Part shown: one piece after another, positions 2,703-60,800 of the stretch
Numbering within the stretch: position 1 is the first letter of the stretch
Layout: each line of letters opens with the position of its first letter
Assembly: GCA_963770895.1 (NCBI GenBank)
Contig: CAVYRF010000002.1
Coordinates: 5,440,001-5,504,000 of the forward strand
Source of the DNA: an uncultured Acidobacteriota bacterium
GTDB lineage: Bacteria > Acidobacteriota > Thermoanaerobaculia > Multivoradales > UBA5704
Direction of reading: 5' to 3'
Length of the DNA stretch: 64,000 nt
Made by a program: the position numbers and the translations under genes
The notes under the pieces: model-generated
Database searches by the model: none
What the model saw: only the letters and a program-made list of their open reading frames with translations
Told to the model about the DNA's origin: nothing

Positions 2703-2902
2703 CCACGTGCTGCGTGCGGCGCGCCGCCGCGCGCATCGCAGATGACAGTAGCGCTGGCGCTTGCAGAGCCATACGGATGCGGCGGCGGAAACCATCCCGG
2801 CCTTCCGTAGTAGAATGGAAAACAAGAACTGACGAAGGGATGTGAACATGCCAAATAATGCCTCATTGGCAATGTGTCTATATTCGCGGAAATCAGGTGC
2901 CT

Positions 2903-5900
2903 ATGTCTTCAGTCATGAAGTGTTGCTTGATGGCCGTTATCGGTCTCGCCAGCTTCTCGGGAGCGCACGCCGGCACAATGACCGCGCCGCGGCCTGCGAC
3001 CGACCCTTCCAGGTCCGCCGCCCGGGCGCTGGCCGCGGTGGTGGAATCGCCTGAGCCGGGGCGCACCTTTGCCGAACCGCTGCTCGCTGCGGGGAGGCCG
3101 GACGCTGGCGAAACGCGACTGCTGCGGCAGGCGATCGAGGCGTACCGCGCCGCGGCCGACGTCGAAGCGGTGCAACCGATCCTTCAGTTCCTGGATCGGC
3201 ACCCGGCTTCGGTTTGGAAGCCGTCGCTGCTTGCCAACCTGGCGGTGCTCTACCGCCATACCGGCTACCTCGATCGCGCGCTGGACGCCGCCGGCGAGGC
3301 GTGGCGGCTGACCAAGGCGTCGGCCGACCCGGAGGTGCGCAAGATCGCCGACAGCGCGCTCGCCACCTGTTTGGAGCTGGACTCTTCGCTCGGCCGGACC
3401 GACGAGCTGGCGGCGCTCCTGGTCGAGGTCCGCGATCGGCCCCTGGGAGGCCATGCGGCGGAAACCGCGTCGGGTGCGCGATCGAGCCTGTGGCAGATGC
3501 GCACCGATCCGGCAGGCTCCTTCCGCTGCGGGCCGCTGGCCCTGGAGCGGGTGAGTCAGGTGCTGCATCCCGGTGCGCCGGTGGACCGGCGCCTGCTGGA
3601 GTATCCGTCCACCTTCCAGGGCACCAGCCTGGCCGAGCTGGTGAAGCTGGCGCAGACCTCGGGCCTGGGCCTCCACGCCGTGCGGCGCGAGGCCGGCTCG
3701 CTCATCCCGGTGCCGTCCGTCGTGCATTGGAAAGCGGACCACTTTGCCGCCCTGGTCGAGGAGCGACAGGGACGCTACCGGGTGAAGGACCTGACCTTCG
3801 GCGACGATCGGTGGCTCAGCCGGCAGGCGGTGGAAGAAGAGTCGACCGGCTATCTGCTGGTGCCGCAGAGCGCGGGTCCGCGGCCCGGCTGGCGGGCGGT
3901 GGCAGAGTCCGAGGCCGCCGGGGTGCGCGGCCGCGGTGTGAGCGCCAACCCCAACCCGGGCGCCACGACGCCGGGCGATCCGAAGAAGCCCCAGCTGCCC
4001 GGCGACTGCAACGCCGGCTCCGACAGCGGCATGCCGCGCTACAACTTCCATGCCGCGGTGATCAGCCTGAACGTGACCGATTCGCCGGTGGGGTACCGGC
4101 CGCCGCGCGGACCCGCCATGCGCTTCGGCATCACGTACAACAGCCGCGAGGACTTTCAGCCCAGCACCTTCACCTTCCCCAACCTGGGGCCGCGCTGGAA
4201 TTTCGACTGGCTCTCCTACGTCGAGGACGACGACCCCAACCTCAACGGCAGCACCATCCGTGTGGCGGAGCGCGGCGGCGGCTCGTACGTGCTGCCGCAG
4301 TCTTCAGGTGCATCGTGGATGTATGGACCCAACGCCCGCGGCTCCCACGAGACGGTGACGCGGCTGTTCGCCAGCGGCGGCACGACGACCATCGGCTTTG
4401 CGCGCCAATATCCCGACGGTTCGCAGGAGGTGTATCAACAGTCGGACGGCGCCACGACCATGCGCAAGTATTTCCTCACCTCGGTGGTGGACCCGGCGGG
4501 CAACGGCGTGACCCTGAGCTACGACGCCGCGACGATGCGCCTGCTGTCGATCACCGATCCGCTGGGCCAGCAGACGACGCTCACCTACGATCCCACGGAT
4601 ATCTACAAGGTCACCGCGGTCACCGATCCGTTTGGCCGCCAGGCGGTCTTCACCTATTCCGGCGGGCTGCTGCAGAGCGTGACCGATGCGATGGGGTTGA
4701 CGTCGTCGTTCGCCTACGGTCCGCCCTACGGCGGTTCGCTCCCCGCGACCGACTTCATGAGCTCGATGACCACACCGTACGGCACCACCGCCTTTGAAAC
4801 CTATGAGCAGCAGCCCACGGACCCCAACGGCACCGCGGATCCGACGCTGCTCGGCAATACGCGCTGGCTGCTGGCGACCGACCCGGTCGGCGACCGCGAG
4901 CGGATCGAGTTCCGGCACCTGGCGCCGGGCGTCCAGCAGACGACCGGCGAACCGGTGCCGGCGGGATTCGACAACAGCAACCTTGCCTATCGCAACACTT
5001 TCTATTGGAACGCCACGGCGATGTTGACCTACAGCGATTCCGATCCCAATCGCTATCTGAATGCATCGTACCTCCAGCACTGGCTGCACGACGGCACCGG
5101 CTCGATTCCCGCCGTCGCCTCGATCCTGGAAAGCGAGCAGGCGCAGGGACAGCATCGCATCTGGTACAGCTACCCGGGCGAGCCGGCGGCGCAATATCAA
5201 GGGACGCTTTCGACACCGACCGCGGTGGCGCAGGTGCTCGATAGCGGACAGACGCAGCTGTACACCCAGACCTATGACGGCTCCGGGCGGTTGCTCAGCC
5301 GTATCGATCCGGTGGGTCGCACCTACTCCTACCACTACGCCAGCAATGGCATCGATCTGGCCTTCATCGACAACGACCTGCTCCACGAGCAGGTGATGGC
5401 CGCGGCGTACAACTCGGCGCACCGTCCGCTCTCCTATACGAATTACGCGGGACAGGCCACCGTCGCCACCTACAACAGTTTCGGCCAGCTCACCTCGGTC
5501 ACCCGGCCCGACGGGGTGGAGACCACCATCACCTACGACGGCCGCGGATTTCCCACCAAGGTGGCCCGCGTGGGCACCTCGTACCAGGAGACCTACACCT
5601 ACGACCCGGTGGGGCGCATAGAGACCTGGACCGGAACCGACGGCTATACGATGACCTTCGGCTACGACAACCTGGACCGCCTGACCGGCATCACCTATCC
5701 GGACGGCACCAGCGAACAGGTGGTGTTCAACCTCCGCGACGTGGTCCTGTATCAGGACCGCATGGGGAGGGCCACCACCTACACCTACGACGCAGCCGAC
5801 CGCCGGCAGTCGATGACCGACGCCGCCGGTCGTACGACGTACTTCTCCTGGTGCGGTTGCGGCGCCCTGGACCAGATGACCGACCCGTTGGGTCATTCGA

Positions 5901-8900
5901 CCTCCTGGTTGAACGACAACCTCAATCGCGTCGTCGGCAAGAGCATCAACGGGCAACTGAGCGTGCTGTATGGCTTTGACGGGTCCGGGCGCCTGGTCGG
6001 CAAGACCGACGCGCTCGGTCAGGTGACCAACTATTCGTACAACGTCGACAACTCCCTGGCAGCGATCGCCTATCAGAATGCAGTTCACCCCACGTCCGGG
6101 GCAACCTTCGCCTACGACCCGTTCTATCCGCGGCTCATCCAGCAGGTCGACGGCTTCGGCACCACGACCTTCACCTACTACCCGGCCGGGGTGCCGGGCG
6201 CCGGAAAGATTGCAACCATGACGGCGCCGGCGCCCAACCACACCGTGGCGTTGCAATACGACGCGATCGGCCGCCAGATTGGGCTGACCCTGGACGGCAT
6301 CGTGCAGAGCCGGTCGTTCGATGGCGAGGGCCGCCTGGCCTCGGTCACCAATCCGCTGGGGACGTTCAACCTCAGCTACGACGGTGCGTCGCCGCGCTCC
6401 ACCGGCGCCTCGTATCCCAACGGTCAGGGATCGACGCTGACCTACCTGGACGTGCTGCACGACTTCCGTCTGTCGCAGCTCGGCTGGGGGCCGGCACCGT
6501 CACTCCCACCTCGGCAGCCATCGGCACCGGCCAGACCTTGACGTTCTATTGCACGGACAGCAACGTGCCGCCGACGATCACCCCGAGCTGCACGATGGAA
6601 ACGGACGATCCGGGGGCGGTGGGCTGGACCAGTCCCGGAACGACCTTCTCCATCCTGCACTCCGCCGGCGCGCCGGGCGGCACCTATCACTACTGGTTCG
6701 ACGGCGCCTGGGGAGGACAGGTGGTGGCGATGGTCACCGTTGTCGACATCCAGGTCAAGCCGGCGTCGATCATCGTGCTGCCCGGCACGCAACGGCAGTT
6801 CTTCTCCGAGGTGACCGGCAGCGGCCAGGCGGTGCAATGGTCCACCACCGTTCCCGGCGCGACGATCTCCAGCACAGGTCTGCTTGCGGTCCCCACCGGC
6901 ACCGCGACCGGCACCCACGCGGTGACGGTCCAGACGGTCGGCACTCCCGTCGCGCCGGCGACCGCCGTGGTGACCGTGGCCAATGCGTTGCCGGTGACCG
7001 GCGTGGCCGTCGCGCCCATCCGTTCGGTCATCGACGAGGGGCAGCAGCAGCCGTTCAGCGCCGTCGTCCTGGGGCAGAACGCCGAGCTCTACGCCAATCC
7101 GGCGGTCTCCTGGTCGGTGTCCGGTCCGGTCCCGGTGTCCATTCCGGCCGACGGCCTGTTCACCGCACCCGCGGCCGATGGCGTCTACACGGTCACCGCC
7201 ACGTCGTTGGCCGACCCGACCAGGTCGGGCTCGGCCACGGTCGTGGTCGGCGAAGACCTGACCGTGCAACCGTCCGCCGTGAGCCTTGCGCCGGGAGCTT
7301 CGCAGGCGTTCACGGCGCAGGTCAGCGGCGAGGCCAATCCGACGACCGCCTGGAGCGTCCTGGAGGGCGCGGCCGGCGGGACGATCTCGGCCGCGGGCGT
7401 CTACACCGCGCCCGCCACGGCGGGCCTCTATCATGTCGTGGCAATGGGGGCGACGGTCGACGCGCAGCTGCAGGGGATGGCCACGGTGAGCGTCGGCTCC
7501 AACCCGGAGGTTTCGGTCACCATCACCCCGGCCGAGGTCTCCCTGGTTCCCGGCGGTACGCAGCAGTTCACCGCCAGCGTCGCGGGCGTGGCCGATACCA
7601 GCGTCGCCTGGACGGCATCGGCGGGCACGATCGACGCGACCGGCTTCTTCACCGCGCCGCCGACCTACGGCACCGTCACCATCACGGCACAAAGCCACGC
7701 CAACCCCCAGGTGCTGACGTCGGCGACTGCCGAAATCGCCGGCAGCGGTCCGGTCACGTCCTTCCAGTACGACGCCGATGGCAATCTGCTGAACGACGGA
7801 ACCCGGACCTACGAATGGGACGCGGCAAACCGGCTGACGGCGGTCAACATCGGCACCCAGCGCAGTGAGTTCGGCTACGACGTCTTCGGCAGAAGGGTCC
7901 TGATCACCGAGAAAACCAACGGCACGGTGACCAGCAGCCACCATTTCATCTGGGTGGGCAACCAGATGCTCGAAGAGACCGATGCGACCTCGGCGCCCGC
8001 CGCTGGTCCGCTGGGCCTCGGCAACTTCGACGCGGTGTCCTGCAACACCATCGTGGGGTGGGCCTGGAACGCCGCCCAACCCAACACCCCGATCAGCGTC
8101 GATTTCTACAACGGGTCGACGAAGGTTGCCTCCACCTTGGCCAACACGTTCCGCAGCGACGTCCGCGCGGCCGGCGGCGGCAATGGCGACCACGGCTTCT
8201 CGTACCCCCTGCCGGCTGCCTTCAAGACCGGCACGGCACAGAGCGTCACCATCATGCTGGACGGCACGTCTACCGGCTTAGGCACCCGCTCCGTCAGCTG
8301 TCCGGCGGCAAGCCTTGCCGGTGCCTTCGGGGAGGCCGACTGCACGCAGCTCGCCGGCTGGGGCTGGGATGCCACCGAGCCGAGCTCGCCGATCGGCATC
8401 GACATCTACGACGGTTCCACCCTGCTCACCACGGTACTCGCCAACGCTTTCCGGCAGGACCTGGTCAACGCCGGCATCGGCAACGGCGATCACGGCTTCT
8501 TCCTGCCCACTCCGGTTTCCCTGAAAAACGGCGCCAGCCATGCGATCACCCTGAAGGCCGCCGGCACCTCGATCGTCCTCGGCGGCACCCGCAGCCTCAC
8601 CTGCCCGGCGCCCGCCTTCAGCGGCCATATCGACTTTGTCGATTGCACCCAGATCGCCGGCTGGGCCTGGGACGCCAATCAACCCAACGCCGCGATCGAC
8701 GTCGACATCTACGACGGCACGACCCTGCTTGCCACCATCCCCGCCAGCAACTTCCGCCAGGACCTGTTGAACGCCGGCATCGGCAACGGCGACCACGGCT
8801 TCACCTACTCGACCCCCGCGCTCTACACCGGATCGACCCACTCGATAACGGTAAACGCCGGCGGCTCGGCAACCACCATCGCCGGCACGCCCGCCACCAT

Positions 8901-9723
8901 CACCTGCCCCAACGAAACGATCCTCACCCTCTTCTTCCCCGAAGGGATGCAGTCCGGCCCCACCTCCTACTACTTCTCCTACGATCACCTGGCCAGCGTC
9001 CGGGAGGTCACCACCGCCGGCGGCGCCGTGGTCAGCCGTTACGACTACGACGCGTACGGCCGCCTCACCGTCAACCAAGGCACCCCGCCGCGCTTCGGCT
9101 ACGCCGGCATGTACTACCACCAGCCCTCCGGCCTCGACCTGACCAGGTACCGCGCCTGCGACCCCGACCTCGGCCGCTGGGAAAGCCGGGACCCCGCCGG
9201 CGAGCAGGTGGACTCCAACCTCTACCGTTACGTGGAAAATGACCCCACGGACCGCACCGATCCCCTGGGCCTGGGCTGGGTTGTGAACAACTCGTGCCAG
9301 AACATCGCAATTAGGAACGAGACTCCCGACTACCGAGTGACCGTCGTGCCACCAGGGACCGGTGCAAACGCGGACGGGGTCTACAACGGGATTCCGGGAC
9401 CAACTCAGGGAGTCACCGGGAATCAGTGCGGACCTTATTTCGGTGATGCAAACGGCGCCTCGGTCCTTAAGATCAACGACTGGGATTCCATTGTCGTCGA
9501 CGGTGGTTGCGGCGGTCAGCCTTTGCAGTGGCATTTTCTGTCGTTCGCCGATCAGTTGGTGTACTACGCGTCACACATACCCTTTATGCGACCAGACTCC
9601 GACGGCTGGAAGCAGGCGCCAGGGTGGTATGACACGTGGCGCGGTTGGAAGGTTCCTTACCAACTGTGGCCGCTCGTCTGCAGCTGTCCGCCACCGCCGG
9701 TTGCCACAGGGCCGACGAGGTAA
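2903..9723 (+). CDS. Secreted RHS/YD-repeat polymorphic toxin with C39-like peptidase, Ig-like repeats and RHS core; one frameshift at ~6486-6490 (ORFs 2858-6541 and 6538-9723)
   Basis: Signal-like N-terminus (MSSVMKCCLMAVIGLASFSGAHA); CGPLAL...HWKADHF; many YD repeats; core motif PTDRTDPLGL. Adding one G to the G5 run joins LGW to GAGTVTPTSAAIGTGQTLTF in the second ORF's frame. Confidence 0.85.
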
Positions 9724-9725
9724 CA

Positions 9726-10175
9726 GTGGCCGAAGTCGTCTACGCTCTTTGCTTGGCTTGCTTGGCCGCTTGCGCTTGTATAGTGGTTGCGTGCTGGCAC
9801 GCCCTGCACAGGCGACCGAGACCCACTCGCGCCTGGCTGGTGGCGACGTTGATCCCCTTCATAGTCTTTTGCGCGGTGGTCATGTCACCCTTCCTCAGCC
9901 GCGTGCTGCTCTATCACTCTATCAACGACACCGATTACTCACCAAGTTACACCGAGCAGGGTTTCGAGGCTCTTCCCATCGGAGCTTCGCGCGCAGAGAT
10001 CGTTCGCGTTTTGGGACCACCGCTGAGCTCTGCGGATAGCGGGGACGAAATATGGCTGTATTACTCGGAACACCGCTACACAGGGCGCAGTCGGAACTTT
10101 TGGATGAAATATTTGATCTTAGATGCCAAGACCAAGACCCTAAAGAAAAAAATCGATCGATTCGCGGTCCCCTAG
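9726..10175 (+). CDS. Putative immunity protein 1 (2 TM helices + SmpA/BamE-like soluble domain)
   Basis: GTG 2 nt after the toxin stop; lower GC; two hydrophobic segments; GASRAEIVRVLGPP motif. Confidence 0.7.
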   Translation: MAEVVYALCLACLAACACIVVACWHALHRRPRPTRAWLVATLIPFIVFCAVVMSPFLSRVLLYHSINDTDYSPSYTEQGFEALPIGASRAEIVRVLGPPLSSADSGDEIWLYYSEHRYTGRSRNFWMKYLILDAKTKTLKKKIDRFAVP

Positions 10176-10246
10176 CTTGGCCGCTGACCTGGAGCTGCGC
10201 GCCGCCGCCCGTTGGCATCTCGTCGAAACTGAAGGGAGATAAGGGC

Positions 10247-10693
10247 GTGCCTGACATCACCGTCTTTTGGTTCGCCGCGATGGCGGCATTCTCCCTTACT
10301 CTGGTTGCCTGCTGGCATCTTCGGCATGCAAGGTGGCGGCAATGCTTTGCATGCCTCGGTGCTGCAGTGCTTCCGCTGGTGCTCTTCTTTGTAGTGGAGA
10401 AGTCGCCTTTCCTGGACCGCGCGCTCTTCTACTTCTCGCTCAACGACACCGAGTACGCGAGCGGATACGCCGATAAGGCGTTCGACTCGCTCGCCGTTGG
10501 GGCTTCACGAACAGAGATCTATCGAGTGCTGGGGCCACCACTGCTGGCCGAGGACTGGGGCGACGAGATATACCTCTATTATTCACAGCATCGCAGTGGC
10601 GGTTACAGCCGCAACTATTGGAAAAAGTTCCTGGTCGTTGATCCGAAAACGTTGACCTTGCAGAGGAAGGTCGATGAATTCGAGGCGCCGTAA
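10247..10693 (+). CDS. Putative immunity protein 2, paralog of the preceding gene
   Basis: Purine-rich RBS (GGGAG) before GTG; aligns with immunity 1 (SPFL.R.L.Y.S.NDT.Y, GASR.EI.RVLGPPL, GDEI.LYYS.H, SRN.W.K.L). Confidence 0.7.
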   Translation: MPDITVFWFAAMAAFSLTLVACWHLRHARWRQCFACLGAAVLPLVLFFVVEKSPFLDRALFYFSLNDTEYASGYADKAFDSLAVGASRTEIYRVLGPPLLAEDWGDEIYLYYSQHRSGGYSRNYWKKFLVVDPKTLTLQRKVDEFEAP

Positions 10694-10837: not shown

Positions 10838-13800
10838 GTGCCTTTCCTGCATGGAGGTTTGACCTTGCGCGGATCCTGTCTGGCTGGGCTGGTGGTGGCT
10901 CTGGGTGTGACGTTGGTGGTGGGAGGACGGGTGGAGGGGCAGGTGGGGGTGCCGGCGGAGCTGAAGCCGGATCTGGGGCAGGCGATGGATGCGGAGGGGA
11001 CGGCGAAGATTCGCAAGTACACGACGGCGCCGGAGTTCAACTCGCCGCTGACGGACTATCTGCCGGCGTCGGGGAGCGTGCCGGCGCCTTCGGCGGTGCT
11101 GGGGGATGTGTCGGGGGCTCCGGGGATCCTGCCGTATGCGGAGGACGTACATCGGTACTTCCGGATGCTGGCGGCGGCGAGCCCGCGGGTGCGGGTGGTG
11201 TCGATCGGGACCAGCGAGGAGGGGCGGGAGCGGATCGCGGTGGCGATCAGCTCGGAGGCGAACCTGGCGCACCAGGGGGAGAACGACGCTCGGCTGGCGC
11301 AGCTGGCGGACCCGCGGGTGCTGCAGGGGGACGATGCGCGGGCGGAGGGGCTGATCGCGGCGAGCGTGCCGGTGTACTACATCACGGGGACAATCCACTC
11401 GCCGGAGACGGGGGCGCCGACGGCTTTGATGGAGCTGGCGTACCGGCTGGCGGTGGACGAGAGCCCTTACATCCGGTCGATCCGGGAGCATGTGATCACG
11501 CTGATCACGCCGGTGGTGGAGGTGGACGGACGGGACCGGATGGTGGATGTGTACCGCTGGCACCTGGCGCATCCCAAGGCGACGCAGCCGCTGCTGTCGT
11601 ATTGGGGGCACTACGTGGCGCATGACAACAATCGGGACGCGATGGGGCTGACGTTGTCGTTGTCGCGGCAGGTGCTGGATACGTACCTGGGCTGGCATGC
11701 CCAGGTGCTGCACGACCTGCACGAGTCGGTGCCGTTCCTGTACGACAACACGGTGGGCGACGGCCCTTACAACGCCTGGGTGGATCCGATCGTGACCAAC
11801 GAGTGGCAGCTGTTTGGCTGGACCAACGTGGCGCAGATGGGCAAGTTCGGGATGCCGGGGGTGTTCACGCATGGCAACTTCGACACCTGGAGCCCGGGCT
11901 ACCTGATGTTCATGGCGGCGATGCACAACGGCGTGTCGCGGTTGTATGAGACGTTCGGCAACGGTGGCGCCGACACCGAGATGCGCGAGCTGGACCCCAG
12001 CGAGTCGGCGCGCACCTGGTACCGCCCCAATCCGCCGTATCCGACGGTGAACTGGTCGCAGCGCAACAACAACAACTACGAGGAGACGGCGCTGCTGATC
12101 TCGCTGGCCTTTGTGGCGGAGAACCGCGGGTTGCTATTGCGCAACTATTGGGAAAAGGGCAAGCGGTCGATCGCCAAGCCTTCGCAGGAGGGCCCGGCGG
12201 CATACGTCTTCCCCGCGGACGACCGGCGGCCCGGGGCGCAGGCGGAGCTGCTGCGCGTCCTGCAGGCGCAGCACGTGGAGATCTGGCGTGCCGACCGCGC
12301 CTTTACCGTGCACGTGGGTAACGCCGCCGGCACCAGCGGCAGCGATGGGGATGGCAAGGGGGATGGCACCGCCGCCGGCGGCAGGAATGCCGTGGCTGGC
12401 GCCAAGGATTCTGCCGCCGGTGCCGCGCGAACGTTCCCGGCGGGCAGCTACGTGGTGCGCATGGATCAGCCGTTCAGCCGCATCGCCGACGCGCTGCTGG
12501 ACCGCCAATACTGGAGCCCGGACGATCCGCAGAAGCATCCCTATGACGATACGGGTTGGTGCTTTCCCGAGCTGTTCGACACCCAGGCGGTGCGGGTGGT
12601 GGACCGGCAGGTGCTGACGGCGCCGATGACCCGCGTCGCGGCGGCGGAACCGCTGCGTGCGCGTGGCGCGGTTGCCGGCGCCGCTGCCGGCAGCGGCGGC
12701 GCAGGCGGACCGGTGTTTCTGATCGCGCAGCGGGGGGGCGACGACGCGCTGTTCTCGCTGCGCTATGCCCTGGGCGATGCGACCGTCGCGGCGGCGAGCC
12801 AGTCGTTTCGGGTCGGTGGGCACGACTACCCTCGCGGCACCTGGGTGGTGCGCGGCATCGGGCGCGACGATCTGGCGAAGACGGCGGCGGCGGCCGGCGT
12901 CTCGGTGGAGGTCGTGGCGGCGGTGCCGTCCGTGGCGACGCGGCCGGTGGCCAAGCCGCGCATCGCGCTGTTGCACAGCTGGATCGATACCCAGACCGAG
13001 GGTTGGTGGCGGCAGCGCCTGGATCTGCTGAAGGTGCCGTACCACTACATGAGCACACAGGACGTTGCCGCCGACGGCGATCTGGCCGCCCATTACGACG
13101 TGATCCTGTTTCCGCCCGTCGGCGTTGGAGAGCCGATGCTGATCGTCAGCGGCGTCCCGTCGGCGTGGGGCCAGCCGATGCCGTGGAAGCAGACGCCCGA
13201 AACCCCCAACCTGGGGCGCATCGATTCGACCGACGACCAGCGCCCCGGCCTGGGGTTTGCCGGGCTGGAGCACCTGCGCCAGTTCGTCGAGCAGGGCGGG
13301 CTGCTGATCACCGTCGAGGACACCGCGCGCCTGATGATCCAGGCCGGTATGGTGCACGGCGTGCGCGTCCCCGATACCCACAACCTGCGTGTCGTCGGCA
13401 GCGTGCTGGACGCGCGCTTCCCCAACCCCGCATCTCCCTTTGCCGATGGCATGGGGGACCGCCTGTCGGTCTACAGCTCGTCGGGTCTGAGCTTTGAGTT
13501 GAGCAATTCGGCCGAGGGCGGTTGGCCCGAAGAGGAAGCCGACCGGCCCACCGGCCGCGGCGGCCCCAAGGATCAGGACATCGTGCAGGGGCGCACGCCG
13601 GTCTCGCCGCGCGGCGCCGACGCCAAGTTCGAGCGCTGGCAGGCGCGCCCGCTGCGCCTCGAAGACATGCGCGACAACCCGGGGGTGATCCCCGAGTCGC
13701 TGCGGCCGCAGACGCTGCTGCGCTTCGGCGACGCCGACGACCTGCTGGTGTCCGGCCTGCTGGAACACGGTTCCGAGCTGGCGCGCCGCGCCGCCGTCGT

Positions 13801-13966
13801 GGAAGTCCCGGTAGGCAAGGGCCACGTCGTCCTCTTCGGCATCAACCCGATCTGGCGCGGCTCGACGATCGGCAGCCACCCCCTGGTCTGGAACACCATC
13901 CTGCAGCACCAGTTCTTCGCCCCGGCCCCAGCAGCGACCCCGGCCGGCGCTGCCGCCAGCCATTGA
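10838..13966 (+). CDS. Secreted M14-family zinc carboxypeptidase-like protein with C-terminal class I GATase-like domain
   Basis: Signal peptide; GTIHSPE (HxxE), HDNNRD and HDLHE zinc motifs; C-terminal GKGHVVLFGINP. Confidence 0.85.
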   Translation: MPFLHGGLTLRGSCLAGLVVALGVTLVVGGRVEGQVGVPAELKPDLGQAMDAEGTAKIRKYTTAPEFNSPLTDYLPASGSVPAPSAVLGDVSGAPGILPYAEDVHRYFRMLAAASPRVRVVSIGTSEEGRERIAVAISSEANLAHQGENDARLAQLADPRVLQGDDARAEGLIAASVPVYYITGTIHSPETGAPTALMELAYRLAVDESPYIRSIREHVITLITPVVEVDGRDRMVDVYRWHLAHPKATQPLLSYWGHYVAHDNNRDAMGLTLSLSRQVLDTYLGWHAQVLHDLHESVPFLYDNTVGDGPYNAWVDPIVTNEWQLFGWTNVAQMGKFGMPGVFTHGNFDTWSPGYLMFMAAMHNGVSRLYETFGNGGADTEMRELDPSESARTWYRPNPPYPTVNWSQRNNNNYEETALLISLAFVAENRGLLLRNYWEKGKRSIAKPSQEGPAAYVFPADDRRPGAQAELLRVLQAQHVEIWRADRAFTVHVGNAAGTSGSDGDGKGDGTAAGGRNAVAGAKDSAAGAARTFPAGSYVVRMDQPFSRIADALLDRQYWSPDDPQKHPYDDTGWCFPELFDTQAVRVVDRQVLTAPMTRVAAAEPLRARGAVAGAAAGSGGAGGPVFLIAQRGGDDALFSLRYALGDATVAAASQSFRVGGHDYPRGTWVVRGIGRDDLAKTAAAAGVSVEVVAAVPSVATRPVAKPRIALLHSWIDTQTEGWWRQRLDLLKVPYHYMSTQDVAADGDLAAHYDVILFPPVGVGEPMLIVSGVPSAWGQPMPWKQTPETPNLGRIDSTDDQRPGLGFAGLEHLRQFVEQGGLLITVEDTARLMIQAGMVHGVRVPDTHNLRVVGSVLDARFPNPASPFADGMGDRLSVYSSSGLSFELSNSAEGGWPEEEADRPTGRGGPKDQDIVQGRTPVSPRGADAKFERWQARPLRLEDMRDNPGVIPESLRPQTLLRFGDADDLLVSGLLEHGSELARRAAVVEVPVGKGHVVLFGINPIWRGSTIGSHPLVWNTILQHQFFAPAPAATPAGAAASH

Positions 13967-53143: not shown

Positions 53144-54440
53144 ATGGCTGAAGACACGCCGCACCCGCCGGCTCACGGCGAAGCCACACCCGCCGCGCCA
53201 GCGGATGCGCATCGATCCTCGCCGTCGCGGCACCGCGTCTGGGTGTGGATCCTGGCTGTCGCCGCCGTCCTGGTGGTCATCATCCTGTTCGTCTACTGGC
53301 GCCACGCGGCGGCCAAGGCAAAGGCGGCGGCGGCGGCAAAGCGCAATGCCAACACGGCGGTGGCGATCACCACGGCGACGGCCACCAGGGGTGACATCGG
53401 CGTCTACATCGACTCGATCGGCACCGTCACGCCGTTGCAGACCGATTCCATCACCAGCCTGGTGAGCGGCCTGATCTTTTCCGTGCACTACCACGAAGGG
53501 CAGCTGGTCCACATCGGCGATCCGCTGGTCGACGATCGATCCGCGTCCCTACCGGGCGACGCTGCTGCAGGCGCAGGGGACGCTCGAAAAGGATGAGAAC
53601 GTGCTGGGGCAGGCGCGCATGGACCTGGTGCGCTACCGCGCCGCGCTGGCGCGCAACGCCATCGCCGAGCAGCAGGCGGCGGACCAGGAAAAGATCGTGC
53701 TGCAGGACGAAGGCGTGGTCAAAAACGACCAGGGCACCGTGCAGTACGACGAGCTGCAGGTCGCCAACTGCCATATCGTGGCGCCGATCAGCGGTCAGGT
53801 GGGCTTGCGGCTGGTCGACCCCGGCAACGTGGTGCAGGCCAACAGCACCGTCACCCTGGTGGTGATCACCCAGCTGCAGCCCATCACCGTGGTCTTCACG
53901 GTTTCGGAGGACGGCCTGGGGCCCGTGGCGACGCGCCTGCGCAGCCAGGCCAAGCTGGCGGTGGACGTGTTCGATCGCACGGCGCAGACCAAGATCGCGA
54001 GCGGCGTGCTGGTGGCGCTGGACAACCAGGTGGACACGACGACCGGCACGGTCAAGGGGCGCGCGCAATTTGACAACGCCAACCTGGCGCTCTTTCCCAA
54101 TCAATTCGTCAACACGCGGCTGCTGGTCGATACCATCCGCGGAGCGACGCTGGTGCCGACCTCGACCATCCAGCACAATGGCCAGGCGTCCTTCGTCTAC
54201 GTGATCCAGAACGGCACGGCGCTGATGAAGCCGGTCAAGCCGGGAGTCAACAACGGCGCCATCACCCAGGTCGAAGGTATCAACCCCGGCGACGTGCTGG
54301 CCAACAGCAACTTCGACAAGCTGCAGAACAACACCAAGGTCGCGGTGAGCAACCCGGCGGCACCCGGCGCCGCCGCTGCCGCTCCCGCCGCCGCTCCCGC
54401 CGTCAAGGCGAAGACCCCGCGCAGGAACCCGCTGCCGTGA
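53144..54440 (+). CDS. mdtA: RND periplasmic adaptor MdtA (frameshift at ~53530)
   Basis: N-terminal TM; GTVTP; EGQLV..GDPL; [18 protein letters not shown]; [10 protein letters not shown]; LFPNQFVN. Confidence 0.88.
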
Positions 54441-57400
54441 ACCCGTCGCGCCCGTTCATCGTCCGGCCGGTGGCAACGGCGTTGCTGATGGCCGCGATCT
54501 TTCTGGTCGGGGTGGTCGGCTACACCCAGCTGCCGGTGTCGGCGCTGCCCGAAGTCGACTATCCCACCATCCAGGTGGTGACGTTCTACCCCGGTGCCAG
54601 CCCGGACGTCATGGCCACCACGGTCACGGCGCCGCTGGAACGCCAGTTCGGCGAAATGCAGGGCCTCAGCCAGATGACGTCGACCAGCGCCGGCGGCACG
54701 TCGGTGGTGGTGCTGCAGTTCAACCTCACGCTCGACATCGACGTCGCCGAAGAAGAGGTGCAGTCGGCGATCAACGCTTCGCAAAGCGTGCTGCCGGCCA
54801 ACCTGCCGGCGCCGCCGGTCTACAGCAAGACCAACCCCGCCGACGCGCCGGTGCTGACCCTGGCCGTCACCTCGGCCACGGTGCCGCTGTCGCAGGTCGA
54901 GGACCTGGTGGACACCCGCCTGGCACCCAAGATCTCGCAGCTCAACGGCGTCGGCCTGGTCACCATCAGCGGCGGCCAGAAGCCGGCGGTGCGCATCCAG
55001 GCCAACCCCAGGGCGCTGTCGTCGTACGGCATCAACCTGGAGGACCTGCGCACGGCGTTGACCCAGGCGAGCGTCAACGCCGCCAAGGGCAACTTCGACG
55101 GCCCGCGCCAGGACTATCAGATCGATTCCAACGACCAGCTGGTCACCAGCGCCGACTATCGCAAGGTGGTGGTCGCCTACCGCAACGGCGCGCCGGTGAT
55201 GCTGAGCGACGTGGCGCGCATCGTCGACGGCGTGGAAAACAACGTCCAGGCGGCGTGGATGAACATGACGCCGGCGATCATCGTCAACGTGCAACGGCAG
55301 CCCGGTGCCAACACCATCAGCGTGGTCAGGACCATCAAGAACCTGCTGCCGCAGCTGCAGGTGAACCTGCCCAAGGGTATCGAGGTCACGACGCTGACCG
55401 ACCTGACCACGTCGATCCAGGCGTCGGTGACCGACGTCGAGCTCGACCTGTTCCTGACCGTGGCGCTGGTGGTCCTGATCATCTTCCTGTTTCTACGCAG
55501 CCTGCGCGCCACGATCATCCCCAGCATCGCCGTGCCGCTGTCGCTGGTCGGCACCCTGGCGGTGATGTACCTGCTGGGGTACAGCCTGGACAACCTGTCG
55601 CTGATGGCCCTGACCATCGCCACCGGCTTCGTCGTCGACGATGCGATCGTCATGATGGAGAACATCTCGCGCTACATGGAGAGGGCGAAAAGCCGATGGC
55701 CGCGGCGCTCAAGGGCGCGGAGCAGATCGGCTTCACCATCGTTTCGCTGACGGTGTCGCTGATCGCGGTGCTGATCCCGCTGCTCTTCATGGGCGACGTG
55801 GTGGGGCGGCTGTTCCGCGAGTTCGCGGTGACCCTGGCGGTGACGATCATCTTTTCGGCGATCGTGTCGCTGACCCTCACACCGATGATGAGCGCGCGCA
55901 TCCTGCGGCAGGAGTCGGAGGAGAAGCGCGGTCGCTTCTATCAGGCATCGGAACGCGTCTTCAATCGTCTGATCGACTTCTACGGCCGCACGCTCAAGTT
56001 CGTCCTGGGCTACCAGACGGTGACGCTGCTGATCGCGCTGGCGACGCTCATCCTTACCGTCATTCTCTACATCGTGATCCCCAAGGGGTTCTTCCCGGTG
56101 CAGGACACCGGCGTCATCCAGGGTATTTCCCAGGCGCCGCAGGACATCGGCGCCAAGGCCATGGCCGCCAGGCAGCAGGAGGTGGCGAAGATCGTGCTGG
56201 CCGACCCGGCCGTCGCCAGCCTGTCGTCGTTCATCGGCGCCGACGGCACCAATACCACCACCAACAGCGGCAGGATGTCGATCAACCTCAAGCCGCTCGA
56301 CCAGCGCGACCTGAGCGCCGCGGACGTGGTGCGCAGGCTCAAGGGCTCGCTCAGCCAGGTGCAGGGCATCGAGCTGTTCATGGAGCCGGTGCAGAACATC
56401 ACGGTCGACGACCGCGTGAGCCGCACCCAGTACCAGTACACGCTGGAAGACCCCGACGTCAACGAGCTCAACGATTGGACCAACCGGTTCGTCGCCAAGC
56501 TCAAGGAGCTGCCCGACCTGGAAGACGTCGCGACCGACCAGCAGACCGGCGGCCTGGCCGTGTCGCTGGTGATCGACCGGGTGAGCGCCTCGCGTCTGGG
56601 CATCGCGCCGGCGACGATGGACAACACGCTGTACGACGCCTTCGGCCAGCGCCAGATCAACACCATGTACACCCAGGTCAACCAGTACCACGTGATCCTG
56701 GAAAGCGATCCCAAGTTCCAGCAGGACCCGAGCAGCCTCAACAACCTTTACATCCAGGCCAACGCTTCGGCCGGGACGAGCGGCGCCGCCGCCTCGTCGT
56801 CGTTTTCCGCCTCCGCGTCGGCCTCGGCCGGTTCGAACGCGTTGACCGGGTCGGCGCTGTACACGCCGTCGGCCACCACGCTGTCGCCGCCCAACGGCGC
56901 GCTGGCCGCGGCCGGCGGGGGCGCTGCCACCACCAGCCGCGGCGTGACGTCGGCCGGCAGCACCAGCTCGGTGATGAGCAACGCCGTGCCGCTCAGCGCC
57001 TTCTCGCACTTTGTGCGGACCACCGAGCCGCTGGCCATCACCCACCAGGGGCAGTTCCCGGCGATCACGGTGTCCTTCAACCTGGCCGCGGACGCGTCGC
57101 TGGGCTCCGCCATTTCGGAGGTCAACCGGGTGCAGCGGGAGCTGCAAATGCCGCCCAGCGTCCAGGCCAGCTTTCAGGGCACCGCGGCATCGTTCACCAA
57201 TTCGCTGACCAACGAACCGCTGCTGATCCTGGCGGCGCTGGTTGCGGTGTACATCGTGCTGGGCATCCTGTACGAAAGCTTCATCCACCCCATCACCATC
57301 CTGTCGACGCTGCCCTCGGCGGGCGTCGGGGCGCTGCTGGCGCTGATGCTGTTCCGCCAGGACCTCAACGTGGTGGCGCTGATCGGCATCATCCTGCTGA

Positions 57401-57867
57401 TCGGCATCGTCAAGAAAAACGGCATCATGATGGTCGACTTCGCCCTGGACGCCGAGCGCAACCAGGGCAAGAGCCCGACCGACGCGATGTACGAGTCGTG
57501 CCTGCTGCGCTTCCGCCCCATCATGATGACTACCATGGCGGCGCTGCTGGCCGGCATCCCGCTGGCCTTCGGCAGCGGCGTGGGGTCCGAGCTGCGCAAG
57601 CCCCTGGGCATCGCGATGGTGGGCGGCCTGCTGCTGAGCCAGGTGCTGACGCTGTATACGACGCCGGTGATCTACATCTTCTTCGACACCCTGGCGCAGC
57701 GCTTCGGCCACGGCAAGGAGCGCGACCGCGACAGGGACAGGGAAGGGGAGGGCGGCTCCAGCCAGGATGGTGAGGCGCGGAAGGGGGCCGACGGGCGGGC
57801 GCGCAGCGACCGCGCAAACGATCGGCGCGGCGGAGCGGGGGAGCCGCAGCCGGCAGGGCAATCGTGA
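54437..57867 (+). CDS. mdtB: RND transporter MdtB (frameshift at ~55680)
   Basis: [54 protein letters not shown]. Confidence 0.9.
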
Positions 57868-60800
57868 ACATCAGCGCACCCTTCATTCATCGGCCGGTCG
57901 CCACGACGCTGCTGACGGTGGCGATCGCGCTGACCGGCGTCGTCGCATTTCTGGTGCTGCCGGTATCGCCCCTGCCGCAGGTGGATTTTCCGACCATCTC
58001 GGTCAGCTCCTCGCTGCCGGGCGGCAGCGCCGAGATCATGGCCTCGTCGGTCGCCACCCCCCTGGAGCGGCAGTTCGGCGCACATCGCCGGGGTGACCGA
58101 GATGACGTCGGCCAGCTCGCTGGGCAGCACCTCGATCACCATCCAGTTCGACCTCAGCCGCGACATCAACGGCGCGGCGCGCGACGTGGAGGCGGCGATC
58201 AACGGCGCGCGAGCCTACCTGCCGGCCAACCTGCCGTCCAATCCGACCTATCGCAAGGTCAATCCGGCGGACGCGCCGATCATGATCCTGGGCCTGACGT
58301 CCGACAAATACGGCCCGGACAAGCTGTACGACGTCGCCTCTACGGTCATGCAGCAGAAGCTGTCGCAGCTGCAGGGCGTCGGCCAGGTGAACGTCGGCGG
58401 CGGCGCCCTGCCCTCGGTGCGCGTCGACGCCAATCCGACGCAGCTGGCCCACTACGGCCTCACCATCGCCAACCTGCAATCGGCGCTGTCGCTGCAAAAC
58501 GCCGACCTGCCGAAGGGGCAGATCTCCGACGGTATCGTCACCGCCGACATCCTGGCCAACGACCAGATCTCGCACGCCGCGGATTACAAGCCGCTGGTCG
58601 TCGGCTACACCAACGGCGCCGCGGTGCGCCTGGCGGACGTCGCCCAGGTGACCGACTCGGTGCAGAACATCCGCGCCGCCGGGTATCTGAACGGCAAGCG
58701 GGCGGTGACGCTGATCATCTTCCGCCAGCCGGGCGCCAACATCATCCAGACGGTCGACACCATCCGCGCGGCGCTGCCTTCGATCAAGGCGTCGATCCCG
58801 TTTGGCATCGACGTCACCATGGTGCTGGATCGCACCACCACCATCCGCGCTTCGATCGTCGACGTCGAACGCACGCTGATCATCTCGATCGTGCTGGTGA
58901 TCGTGGTGGTGTTCCTGTTCCTGCGCAACGGCCGCGCCACGCTCATCCCCGGCGTCGCGATGCCGGTGTCGCTGATCGGCACCTTTGCCGTGATGTATCT
59001 CTTCGGCTACAGCATCGACAACCTGTCGCTGATGGCGCTCACCATCGCCACCGGCTTCGTGGTCGACGACGCCATCGTGGTGATGGAGAACGTCTCGCGC
59101 CACCTGGAAGCCGGCATGAAGCCGTTCGCGGCGGCGCTCAAGGGCGCCCAGGAGATCGGCTTCACGGTGCTGTCGATCAGCATCTCGCTGGTGGCCGTGT
59201 TCATCCCGCTGCTGCTGATGGGCGGCATCGTCGGGCGGCTGTTCCGCGAGTTCGCGGTGACGCTGTCGACCGCCATCGTGGTGTCGATGTTCATCACCCT
59301 GACCACGACGCCGATGATGTGCGCCTACCTGCTGCGCAGCGAGCGCGAGCGTCAAGCACGGGCGTCTCTACCGGGCGAGCGAAAAGGCTTTCGATTGGAT
59401 GCTGTCGGTGTATCGCCGCAGCCTGCACTGGGTGCTGGACAATCCGGGCCTGACCCTGGTGGTGCTGGTGCTCACCATCGCGGTCAACGTCTGGCTGGTG
59501 ATCAAGATCCCCAAGGGATTCTTCCCCGAGCAGGATACCGGCGCGATCACCGGCGCGGTGCGCGGGCCGCAGGACTCTTCGTTCCCGGTGATGAACGACT
59601 CGCCGCCCAGCAGATCGTCGGCGTGATCAAGGCGGACAAGGCGGTGCAAAACGTGATCGCCTTCACCGGCGGCCAGCGGCGCCACCAACACCGGCTTCAT
59701 CTACATCGCGCTCAAGCCGCTGTCGGTGCGCAAGGTCAGCGCCGCGCAGATCATCGCCCGCCTGCGGCCGCAAATTGAACGCCTCGCCGGCGGCCTCCGC
59801 CTTCCTGCAGGCGGCGCAGGACCTGCGCATCGGCGGCGCGGTCCAGCAACGCCATGTACCAATACACCCTGCAGTCCGACAACGTGCAGGATCTGACCAA
59901 GTGGGGACCGATCGCTGCTGGCGCAGATGAAGAAGCTGCCGGGGATGCAGGACGTCAGCTCCGACCAGCAGAACGGCGGCCTCGACGAGATGCTGACGTT
60001 CGACCGGGTCACCGCCGCCAAGCTGGGGCAGACCACGCAGTCGCTGGATGCGGCGCTGTACAGCGCCTTCGGCCAATCCGAAGTGTCGGTCATCTACACC
60101 CAGCTCAACCAGTATTACGTCGTGCTGGAGGTGGCGCCGCAGTACTGGCAGAGCCCGGAAGGGCTCAAGTCGCATCTACCTGCACAGTCCCGGCGGCGGC
60201 ATGATCCCGCTGCTCGCGGTCGCCAAGAGCCAGGTCAGCAACGTCGCTCTGGCGATCAACCATACGGGGCTGTTCCCCATCGGTCACCACGTCCTTCAAT
60301 CTGGCGCCGAACGTATCGCTGAGCGATGCCACCAAGAGCATCAACCAGATGCAGACCCGCCTGGGCACCCCCGCGACGATGCACGGGTTCTTCGCCGGCA
60401 CGCTGCTGGCCTACCAGCAGTCGCTGAGCAGCGAACCGATGCTGGTCCTGGCGGCCCTGCTGTCCGTCTACATCGTGCTGGGCATCCTGTACGAAAGCCT
60501 GGTCCACCCGCTGACGATCATCTCCAGCCTGCCGCCGGCCAGCGTCGGCGCGATGCTGGCGCTGATGCTTTTGGGCGAGGACCTCAACGTCATCTCGATC
60601 ATCGGCATCGTGCTGCTGATCGGCATCGTCAAGAAAAACGCCATCATGATGATCGACTTCGCCCTGGCAGGCCGAGCGCGACGAGGGCAAGAGCACCGAG
60701 GACTCCATCTTCGAAGCCTGCATGCTGCGCTTCCGCCCCATCCTGATGACCACCATGGCCGCCTTGTTCGGCGCCGTGCCGCTCGCCTTCGGCACCGGCA

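Follow-up and report, generated by a model that had tools for sequence, protein, structure and literature searches.

Can the shell of an RHS toxin be divided between two proteins? RHS cocoons are usually treated as single-chain containers, and the question is raised by a locus at positions 2,903 to 9,723 of the window, by which we mean the whole 64,000-nucleotide stretch analyzed here (contig CAVYRF010000002.1 of an uncultured Acidobacteriota bacterium). Two open reading frames (ORFs) abut at this locus, the first encoding a C39-like peptidase domain and most of a YD-repeat shell, and the second Ig-like domains, the end of a shell, and a putative toxin. An earlier note on this DNA took the two for one RHS polypeptide, broken by a frameshift at ~6490, whose shell is interrupted twice by arrays of adhesin-like domains. 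The sequence features that it listed are all present, coordinates included. Judged against the other copies of the locus, however, the window copy is a deletion-damaged copy of a two-gene module, which probably specifies a bipartite, Sec-exported RHS polymorphic toxin consisting of two genes, A and B, plus putative immunity genes.

Gene structure of the module

A six-frame search of the organism's own genome (8.16 Mb in 3 contigs, 95% complete) with ORF2 returned six more full-length matches, one of them 95% identical (contig C1) and five 61–62% identical, which brings the total to seven copies of the module. A gene A locus lies directly upstream of the gene B locus in all seven. In each of the six other copies, a separate stop codon closes A, and B begins with basic residues, a hydrophobic core, and an end of the A-x-Q/A-Q type, predicted to be a second signal peptide, after which further Ig-like domains follow. 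The start codon of B overlaps the end of A in five of these copies, through either an ATGA overlap or an 11-nt overlap, and in the sixth (L019) B starts at a later ATG. A purine-rich, Shine–Dalgarno-like stretch (GGGAGGG or GGGGGCGG) stands a few bases before the ATG in four copies of this genome, and B is translationally coupled to A. Relative to A, the frame of B is −1 for the C1-type copy and +1 for the remaining five copies, a variation that disfavors programmed frameshifting.

The same two-gene arrangement is found in two related genomes, at one locus in G005 and at two in G011, and its presence there and at six other loci of the genome itself rules out chance. A 2798-aa (amino acid) open frame at G011:C3 that resembled a fused form was rejected, since off-frame sequence rich in Arg, Pro, and Ala makes up its N-terminal 1400 residues and B carries a separate signal peptide there. 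The flanking genes are unrelated between copies (they encode AcrB, a polysaccharide deacetylase, Cpn60, an amino-acid permease, and an EAL protein), so the module is self-contained.

Intact gene A encodes ~1340 aa, in which a signal peptide is followed by a TPR-like region and a C39-like cysteine peptidase, and the YD shell takes up ~900 residues. Intact gene B encodes ~1200–1300 aa with a signal peptide, an Ig-like stalk, the last three YD hairpins, a three-domain array, the Rhs core, and a variable putative toxin. The Rhs_assc_core domain is absent from intact A and present both in B and in P0129, a single-chain relative. In the canonical RHS form, shell and toxin are on one polypeptide, which is not so in the intact copies. 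The first interruption of the supposed single polypeptide turns out to hold a stop, a new start codon, and a second signal peptide in all six other paralogues, and the same is seen at the three loci of the two related genomes and on a Holophagaceae contig described below. The two ORFs are independent genes in the relatives, so the single-gene reading fails, and we regard the existence of two genes as practically certain.

The window copy lacks 1109 bp that are present in its sister on contig C1, to which it is otherwise ~98% identical. In blastn, window positions 2867–6495 match C1:532287–535903 at 98.8% and positions 6495–9479 match C1:537013–539997 at 97.7%. The missing segment encodes the last ~150 residues of A, the A/B overlap, the start of B, its signal peptide, and its first Ig-like domains. 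Because 1109 divided by 3 leaves a remainder of 2, ORF1 enters an out-of-frame tail of 16 codons; ORF2 in the window lacks both a start codon and an export signal. The frame change ascribed earlier to a frameshift at ~6490 is this loss, and a slip in the G5 run at 6486–6490 is ruled out by the comparison with the sister copy. That the deletion is real, and not an assembly error, seems to us quite likely. Some caution over the assembly is called for, since another gene in the window and another copy of A are also broken. AcrB-family sequence at 54437–59775 runs across three ORFs, the first two of which meet at profile positions 420/415, and this points to an efflux pump gene broken by a frameshift or an assembly indel. 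The A gene of locus L015 (G000:C2:660084–660091) matches in two frames (query 46–209 and 207–1352), through either a frameshift or an assembly indel.

Colinearity with a single-chain shell

Colinearity was assessed by pairwise blastp; global MAFFT alignment of the A tail, B, and single-chain proteins misplaced the first YD piece of B. The reference, P0129, is a 1601-aa single-chain C39-RHS protein from a Pyrinomonadaceae metagenome-assembled genome (MAG). Residues 59–1323 of intact A align to P0129 61–1291, B 652–728 to P0129 1295–1371, and B 1040–1157 to P0129 1376–1494, leaving 3 and 4 residues of P0129 between the three blocks. Since the pieces of A and B lie end to end on single-chain proteins with gaps this short, both interruptions fall in shell loops. 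At site 1, a 3-residue turn is replaced by the 42-residue tail of A, the gene boundary, and the 651-residue head of B; at site 2, a 4-residue turn is replaced by 311 residues. The shell of A ends three residues short of the start of the last hairpins in its single-chain relatives. The shell pieces of B align to residues 871–928 and 962–1065 of a solved 1065-residue Rhs core (8qjd), from which it follows that B gives only about the last 195 shell residues. The first of these pieces, YD1, was modeled with a predicted local distance difference test (pLDDT) score of ~80, and its fold matches TccC3 1719–1813 (Z 7.3).

At the level of sequence, A plus B is colinear with one canonical shell, and gene structure and colinearity indicate that the predicted RHS shell is shared between two adjacent gene products. 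The earlier observation that the breaks are in register with an uninterrupted shell is borne out by this alignment, and the comparison with uninterrupted C39-RHS homologues, proposed as a check, places both insertion points at short turns. The accompanying idea, that the domains are grafted into shell loops, is supported: site 2 holds a true in-chain insert, and at site 1, a gene boundary in the intact copies, some single-chain relatives carry Ig-like domains.

Homologues of A form two groups. About 16 clusters (57–65% identity, 1300–1370 aa) are named only "YD repeat-containing protein"; a second and very numerous group, named "RHS repeat-associated" (37–41% identity over 91–97% of A, 1530–1930 aa), consists of single-chain proteins with core and toxin. 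In species-representative genomes, relatives of A are encoded in 549 of 583 candidate stretches and span Acidobacteriota, Verrucomicrobiota, rhizobia, Gammaproteobacteria, and others. For the best 80 loci of these genomes, we determined where the three shell blocks lie; at 20 of them, the core was out of reach, mostly because of short contigs. The gap at site 2 (59 loci) measures 3–10 aa in 54 cases, 311–385 aa at three loci of the split family, and 157–161 aa at two Chthoniobacterales loci. At site 1 (39 loci), it is −22 to +15 aa in 28 cases and 70–86 aa, in frame and stop-free, in eight; a gap of ~700 aa accompanied by a frame change occurs only at the three split loci.

The inserted domains vary between relatives, a point that the earlier note had proposed to survey: at site 2, most loci of the split family carry 98-aa domains, and the second locus of G011 carries three N_BRCA1_IG/CARDB-like domains in their place. 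The 70–86-aa inserts at site 1 match Glucodextran_B-type Ig-like domains in four of four cases examined, two of them over the cut-off (41.4 and 28.0 bits versus 27), and the single-chain C39-RHS loci that carry them (L025, L028, L048, L067, L068, L071, L083, and L098) come from several phyla. The two Chthoniobacterales loci (L084:12923–13465 and L091:12911–13462) are also single-chain C39-RHS genes, with the 157–161-aa insert placed one hairpin before site 2; for the L084 insert, only weak, sub-threshold DUF642/HpiC1-like matches were obtained. P0038, a non-C39 single-chain RHS protein, has two 98-aa domains exactly at site 1. On a Holophagaceae MAG contig (L078:3802–12884), which belongs to the 20 loci with the core out of reach, an A-type C39-RHS gene ends 61 residues past site 1 and is joined through a GTGA overlap to a B-like gene of at least 1680 aa, which encodes a signal peptide and Kelch, BiPBP_C, and PKD domains and runs off the contig. 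By its gene layout, L078 is a second split lineage, with the same shell site and a different head.

The 98-aa repeats of the window copy are 45–46% identical among themselves and carry a conserved Cys near both ends, a pair that fits an exported domain. All three were modeled, using 19 aligned sequences, as beta-sandwiches with pLDDT values of 80–90, and the two ends of the domain would lie close together, as a loop graft would need. Fold searches with the model of the C-terminal part of B returned FN3/Ig-like matches only (best Z 7.8), and matches this generic point to no specific function. In Pfam, nothing scored over threshold on the repeats or on the toxin domain, the best family being Big_7 at E = 0.075. 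A profile built from 14 repeats (A5) found 10,777 cluster representatives at E ≤ 0.001 and 4033 at E ≤ 1e-10, and the longest arrays have 15 copies. In the 24 top profile hits, the partner domains include type IX secretion system sorting tails, M23 peptidases, He_PIG arrays, SBBP propellers, and a rhamnosidase. Taken from these hits, the 98-aa repeat is a common, predicted extracellular module without a Pfam family.

Proposed assembly of the module and competing readings

In the bipartite toxin that we favor, the shell strands of B would dock after export on the open end of A, and the Rhs core would then seal the shell around the toxin, as in TcB–TcC. The Ig-like stalk and the loop domains would be outside the shell, where their role may be to bind a target or to tether the complex to the cell that produces it. 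They are placed outside because a folded insert of ~30 kDa together with the toxin would exceed the cavity, which is put at ~25,000 cubic angstroms in the available part of a recent preprint (bioRxiv 10.1101/2024.02.26.582050). A broader reading, which we hold tentatively and consider slightly less probable than its negation, joins these elements into a two-chain cocoon that evolved independently and is assembled after Sec export. Its last turns would offer two or three loop "sockets" for lineage-specific binding modules, such as the 98-aa beta-sandwiches, NBR1-type Ig, Glucodextran_B-type Ig, and DUF642-like domains. At one socket, the graft would have grown into an adhesin stalk and the gene would have split there, so that the shell could serve as a display scaffold that aims its own toxin.

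Several points weigh against the bipartite toxin. Co-assembly of A and B after export is deduced from sequence, and we regard it as evenly balanced between true and false. Separate Sec export would need the shell to close round an unfolded toxin afterwards, and no route over the outer membrane was identified for the complex. When B was modeled alone, its core and toxin had pLDDT values below 50, and the model is silent on shell closure. Two of the seven copies are damaged, namely, the window copy and that with the frame break in the A gene of L015. Orphan toxin cassettes downstream in two single-chain loci (L081 and L085) start at the same boundary as the Rhs part of B, which could therefore be a recombination relic and not a docking piece. 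The junction in the window, moreover, is unconfirmed by independent data: among contigs of four soil-metagenome runs from one study, none bridges position 6495, and support for the junction is the genome assembly alone. Among the runs listed, none is recorded as RNA. The soil contigs that reach 6495 stop matching there and go on as undeleted sequence. They carry the C1 alleles at diagnostic sites on both flanks (left-flank sites 4/4 in three runs and 3/4 in X2), so they most likely derive from the C1 copy.

The boundary shared with the orphan cassettes also suits the view that B works alone, as an adhesin-tethered toxin whose YD-plus-core piece is a self-cleaving release module and a homology handle for toxin swaps, A being a separate, toxin-less secreted shell or peptidase. 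B does have its own signal peptide and start codon, and the same genome holds P0021, an orphan B fragment of 755 aa with YD1, the three repeats, the core, and a different toxin, which lacks the Ig-like stalk. However, A and B adjoin in seven of seven copies, with the stop/start overlap shown in five of the six intact ones, and their pairing is kept in other genera at 55–65% identity. The ~195 shell residues of B, out of ~1065 in the solved core, are too few to enclose a toxin, and the shell of A ends exactly at the start of B's shell part. We therefore consider it unlikely that B acts without A. The damaged copies, and the orphan fragments scattered in the genome, could instead mean that the whole family is decaying, with A an RHS gene minus its toxin end, B a chimeric leftover, and neither of them functional. 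Against this, five copies keep both frames intact (1176–1376 aa) at only 55–65% identity, none of the C39 catalytic residues varies, and the toxin ends have become diverse, all of which argues for selection rather than decay and makes a decaying family very improbable.

Least credible is a single long RHS polypeptide with two inserted arrays, whether a frameshift, from sequencing or by mutation, has broken it here or programmed frameshifting joins its parts. The two ORFs of the window do abut at a G run, and one protein, P0018 (1905 aa), is an in-frame A–B fusion. P0018 itself, though, lacks the A tail, the B head, and part of the A N-terminal region, and it comes from a MAG contig of 6.8 kb; it reflects either a collapse in the metagenome assembly or another deletion of this type that arose independently. 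The stop codon followed by a signal-peptide-bearing B in six of six other copies (five with an overlapping start codon), the variable frame relation, and a junction that is a 1109-bp loss and not a 1-nt slip leave almost no room for a one-gene product.

Known systems and further features of the locus

TcB–TcC is the closest working analogue of the A–B module, and single-chain C39-RHS proteins are its closest relatives. To our knowledge, TcB–TcC is the only known two-chain RHS shell. As in TcdB2–TccC3 and YenB–YenC2, an RHS/YD shell would be formed here from the polypeptides of two adjacent genes (in our case, this is read from the genes alone), the second chain carries the Rhs core, an aspartyl autoprotease motif, and a variable putative toxin, and the shell surface would be decorated. 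The core of B aligns by sequence to TccC3 and YenC2. In contrast to TcB–TcC, the split occurs only ~195 residues before the shell end, both chains have Sec signal peptides, A has a C39-like peptidase, and B has an Ig-like stalk. In Pfam, neither A nor B matched a beta-propeller, SpvB, or TcdB domain, the only families being C39 and RHS repeats in A and RHS repeats and Ig-like families in B. The genes flanking six loci are housekeeping genes unrelated to the module, with no TcA-like gene noted among them, a result confined to these flanks, as no genome-wide TcA search was made. Since A is related to single-chain C39-RHS proteins, the split would have arisen independently of that in Tc toxins. 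Those proteins (P0129 and P0192, the latter from Methylocaldum) share with A the N-terminal region, the C39 domain, and the shell, at 37–41% identity over all of these. Unlike the A–B module, they are encoded by one gene, have no Ig-like stalk, and have loops of 3–10 residues at both sites, except for the subset with 70–86 aa at site 1.

Sec-dependent RHS toxins such as WapA and the teneurin-like proteins (PMC13018210) resemble the module: they combine a signal peptide and a YD shell with adhesion domains that vary and with a variable toxin at the C-terminus, which in the module is putative. In the part of that article available to us, bacterial teneurin-like toxins are single chains with adhesion domains N-terminal to the shell; the module shows none of their FN-plug and NHL domains, and that part mentions no C39 domain for them. 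Rhs effectors of the type VI secretion system (RhsA, Rhs1, Tse15, and the Salmonella bongori Rhs) have the same YD cocoon and Rhs core, and they are matched in sequence by A and B. The available part of the preprint cited above (bioRxiv 10.1101/2024.02.26.582050) describes the shells of these effectors as smooth and undecorated. The effectors use PAAR or VgrG, whereas the present genome has no Hcp/PAAR match. As far as the accessible text of Zhang et al. 2012 (PMC3482391) goes, a C39-like domain is listed only as a toxin domain. A full-text literature search, with subscription journals and supplements outside its scope, found no account of an RHS shell split in two outside the Tc toxins, of C39-RHS proteins, or of domains inserted into the loops of an RHS shell.

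An RHS shell apparently divided between two exported proteins and bearing adhesin-like loop domains thus appears not to have been described outside the insecticidal Tc toxins. If the bipartite reading is true, this would be a second, independently split shell, and an RHS cocoon could be completed in trans outside the cytoplasm. Two acidobacterial lineages show the split with different heads, and grafted domains turn up repeatedly at the same loops in different phyla, which would mark shell sites that tolerate large insertions. Such a shell would also draw attention to the large C39-RHS family, on which no study was found in the literature searched. The window locus is a broken example, and the family is the object of interest.

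The C-termini that follow the Rhs core differ among 10 paralogous or orthologous copies. In the window copy, DPLGL, a predicted autoproteolysis motif of the DPxGL type, sits just before the putative toxin, a 149-residue C-terminal domain at 9274–9723 for which no Pfam family matched. Small ORFs encoding BamE-like proteins with two transmembrane helices follow B, and an intact copy has an equivalent gene; one or two of these membrane-anchored proteins are likely candidates for immunity. In the C39 domain, Cys237, His308, and Asp324, which we take from C39 motifs to be the catalytic residues, do not vary in any of the 35 A-type and single-chain sequences aligned. The domain is placed behind the signal peptide and ahead of the RHS shell and is not fused to an ABC exporter, and no conserved GG leader was found at the N-termini of B. 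Export through Sec, as the earlier note had it, is consistent with the signal peptides; no match to PF05638 (Hcp) or PF05488 (PAAR) was found in the 95%-complete genome.

Coordinates of the features at the window locus, with the extent of each ORF, are collected in the table below. The Peptidase_C39 match in ORF1 covers residues 224–338 (28.3 bits versus a cut-off of 22 for the family model), behind a signal-peptide-like N-terminus and a TPR-like stretch and ahead of the RHS repeats. The RHS repeat family PF05593 matches ORF1 at E = 2.9e-45 and ORF2 at E = 4.6e-11, TIGR01643 was matched as well, and Rhs_assc_core (TIGR03696) was found in ORF2 at E = 8.1e-18.

Table 1. Features of the module copy in the window and of the ORFs directly behind it
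Feature	Position	Strand	Basis or remark
ORF1	2858–6541		frame 2; ATG 2903 the likely start (translation)
Gene A remnant, truncated ~150 residues short of the intact gene's end	2903–6494	+	translation; Pfam C39 and RHS_repeat; 98.8% identity to intact A on contig C1
Signal peptide (A)	~2903–2971
TPR-like region (A)	~3107–3328
C39-like peptidase (A)	3527–3871
YD shell body (A)	~4030–6494
Deletion junction	6494–6495	+	1109 bp of sister copy (C1:535904–537012) absent; blastn blocks, breakpoint sequences
Out-of-frame tail of ORF1 (16 codons) and stop, product of the deletion	6495–6541	+
ORF2	~6495–9723		open frame-1 reading
Gene B remnant, about five Big_2-type Ig-like domains	6495–7740	+	Pfam (4 stretches); translation (four clear units and one N-terminal unit); comparison with intact B (L014:5322–9236)
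YD1, last three YD hairpins before the core (74 residues)	7762–7983	+	corresponds to P0129 1295–1371 and 8qjd_A 871–928
Loop insert, three 98-aa predicted beta-sandwich domains (8017–8310, 8317–8610, 8620–8913)	8017–8913	+	sequence; predicted structure
Resumed shell and Rhs core, DPLGL at 9259–9273	8929–9273	+	TIGR03696; corresponds to P0129 1376–1494 and 8qjd_A 962–1065
Variable C-terminal putative toxin domain and TAA stop	9274–9723	+	C-termini differ among 10 paralogues/orthologues
Immunity candidate 1, two membrane helices and BamE-like domain	9726–10175	+	GTG start 3 nt after the stop of B
ORF with toxin C-terminus remnant, then immunity candidate 2	10052–10693	+	paralogue of candidate 1

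In the window, the module is flanked by the end of a nonribosomal peptide synthetase gene (C, A, and PCP domains; 3–2702) and by a gene for a 1042-aa M14 carboxypeptidase-like protein (10838–13966), neither of which recurs at the other copies. Orphan or partial fragments of B lie near three paralogous modules, at G000:C2:1555313–1556866 (−), C2:2989081–2989593 (+), and C2:649120–649843 (−). The ORF of the second immunity candidate opens with a remnant that resembles the last residues of the toxin, with the same Trp-Pro-Leu, Cys-x-Cys, and poly-Pro pattern; in loci of polymorphic toxins, displaced toxin ends typically look like this.

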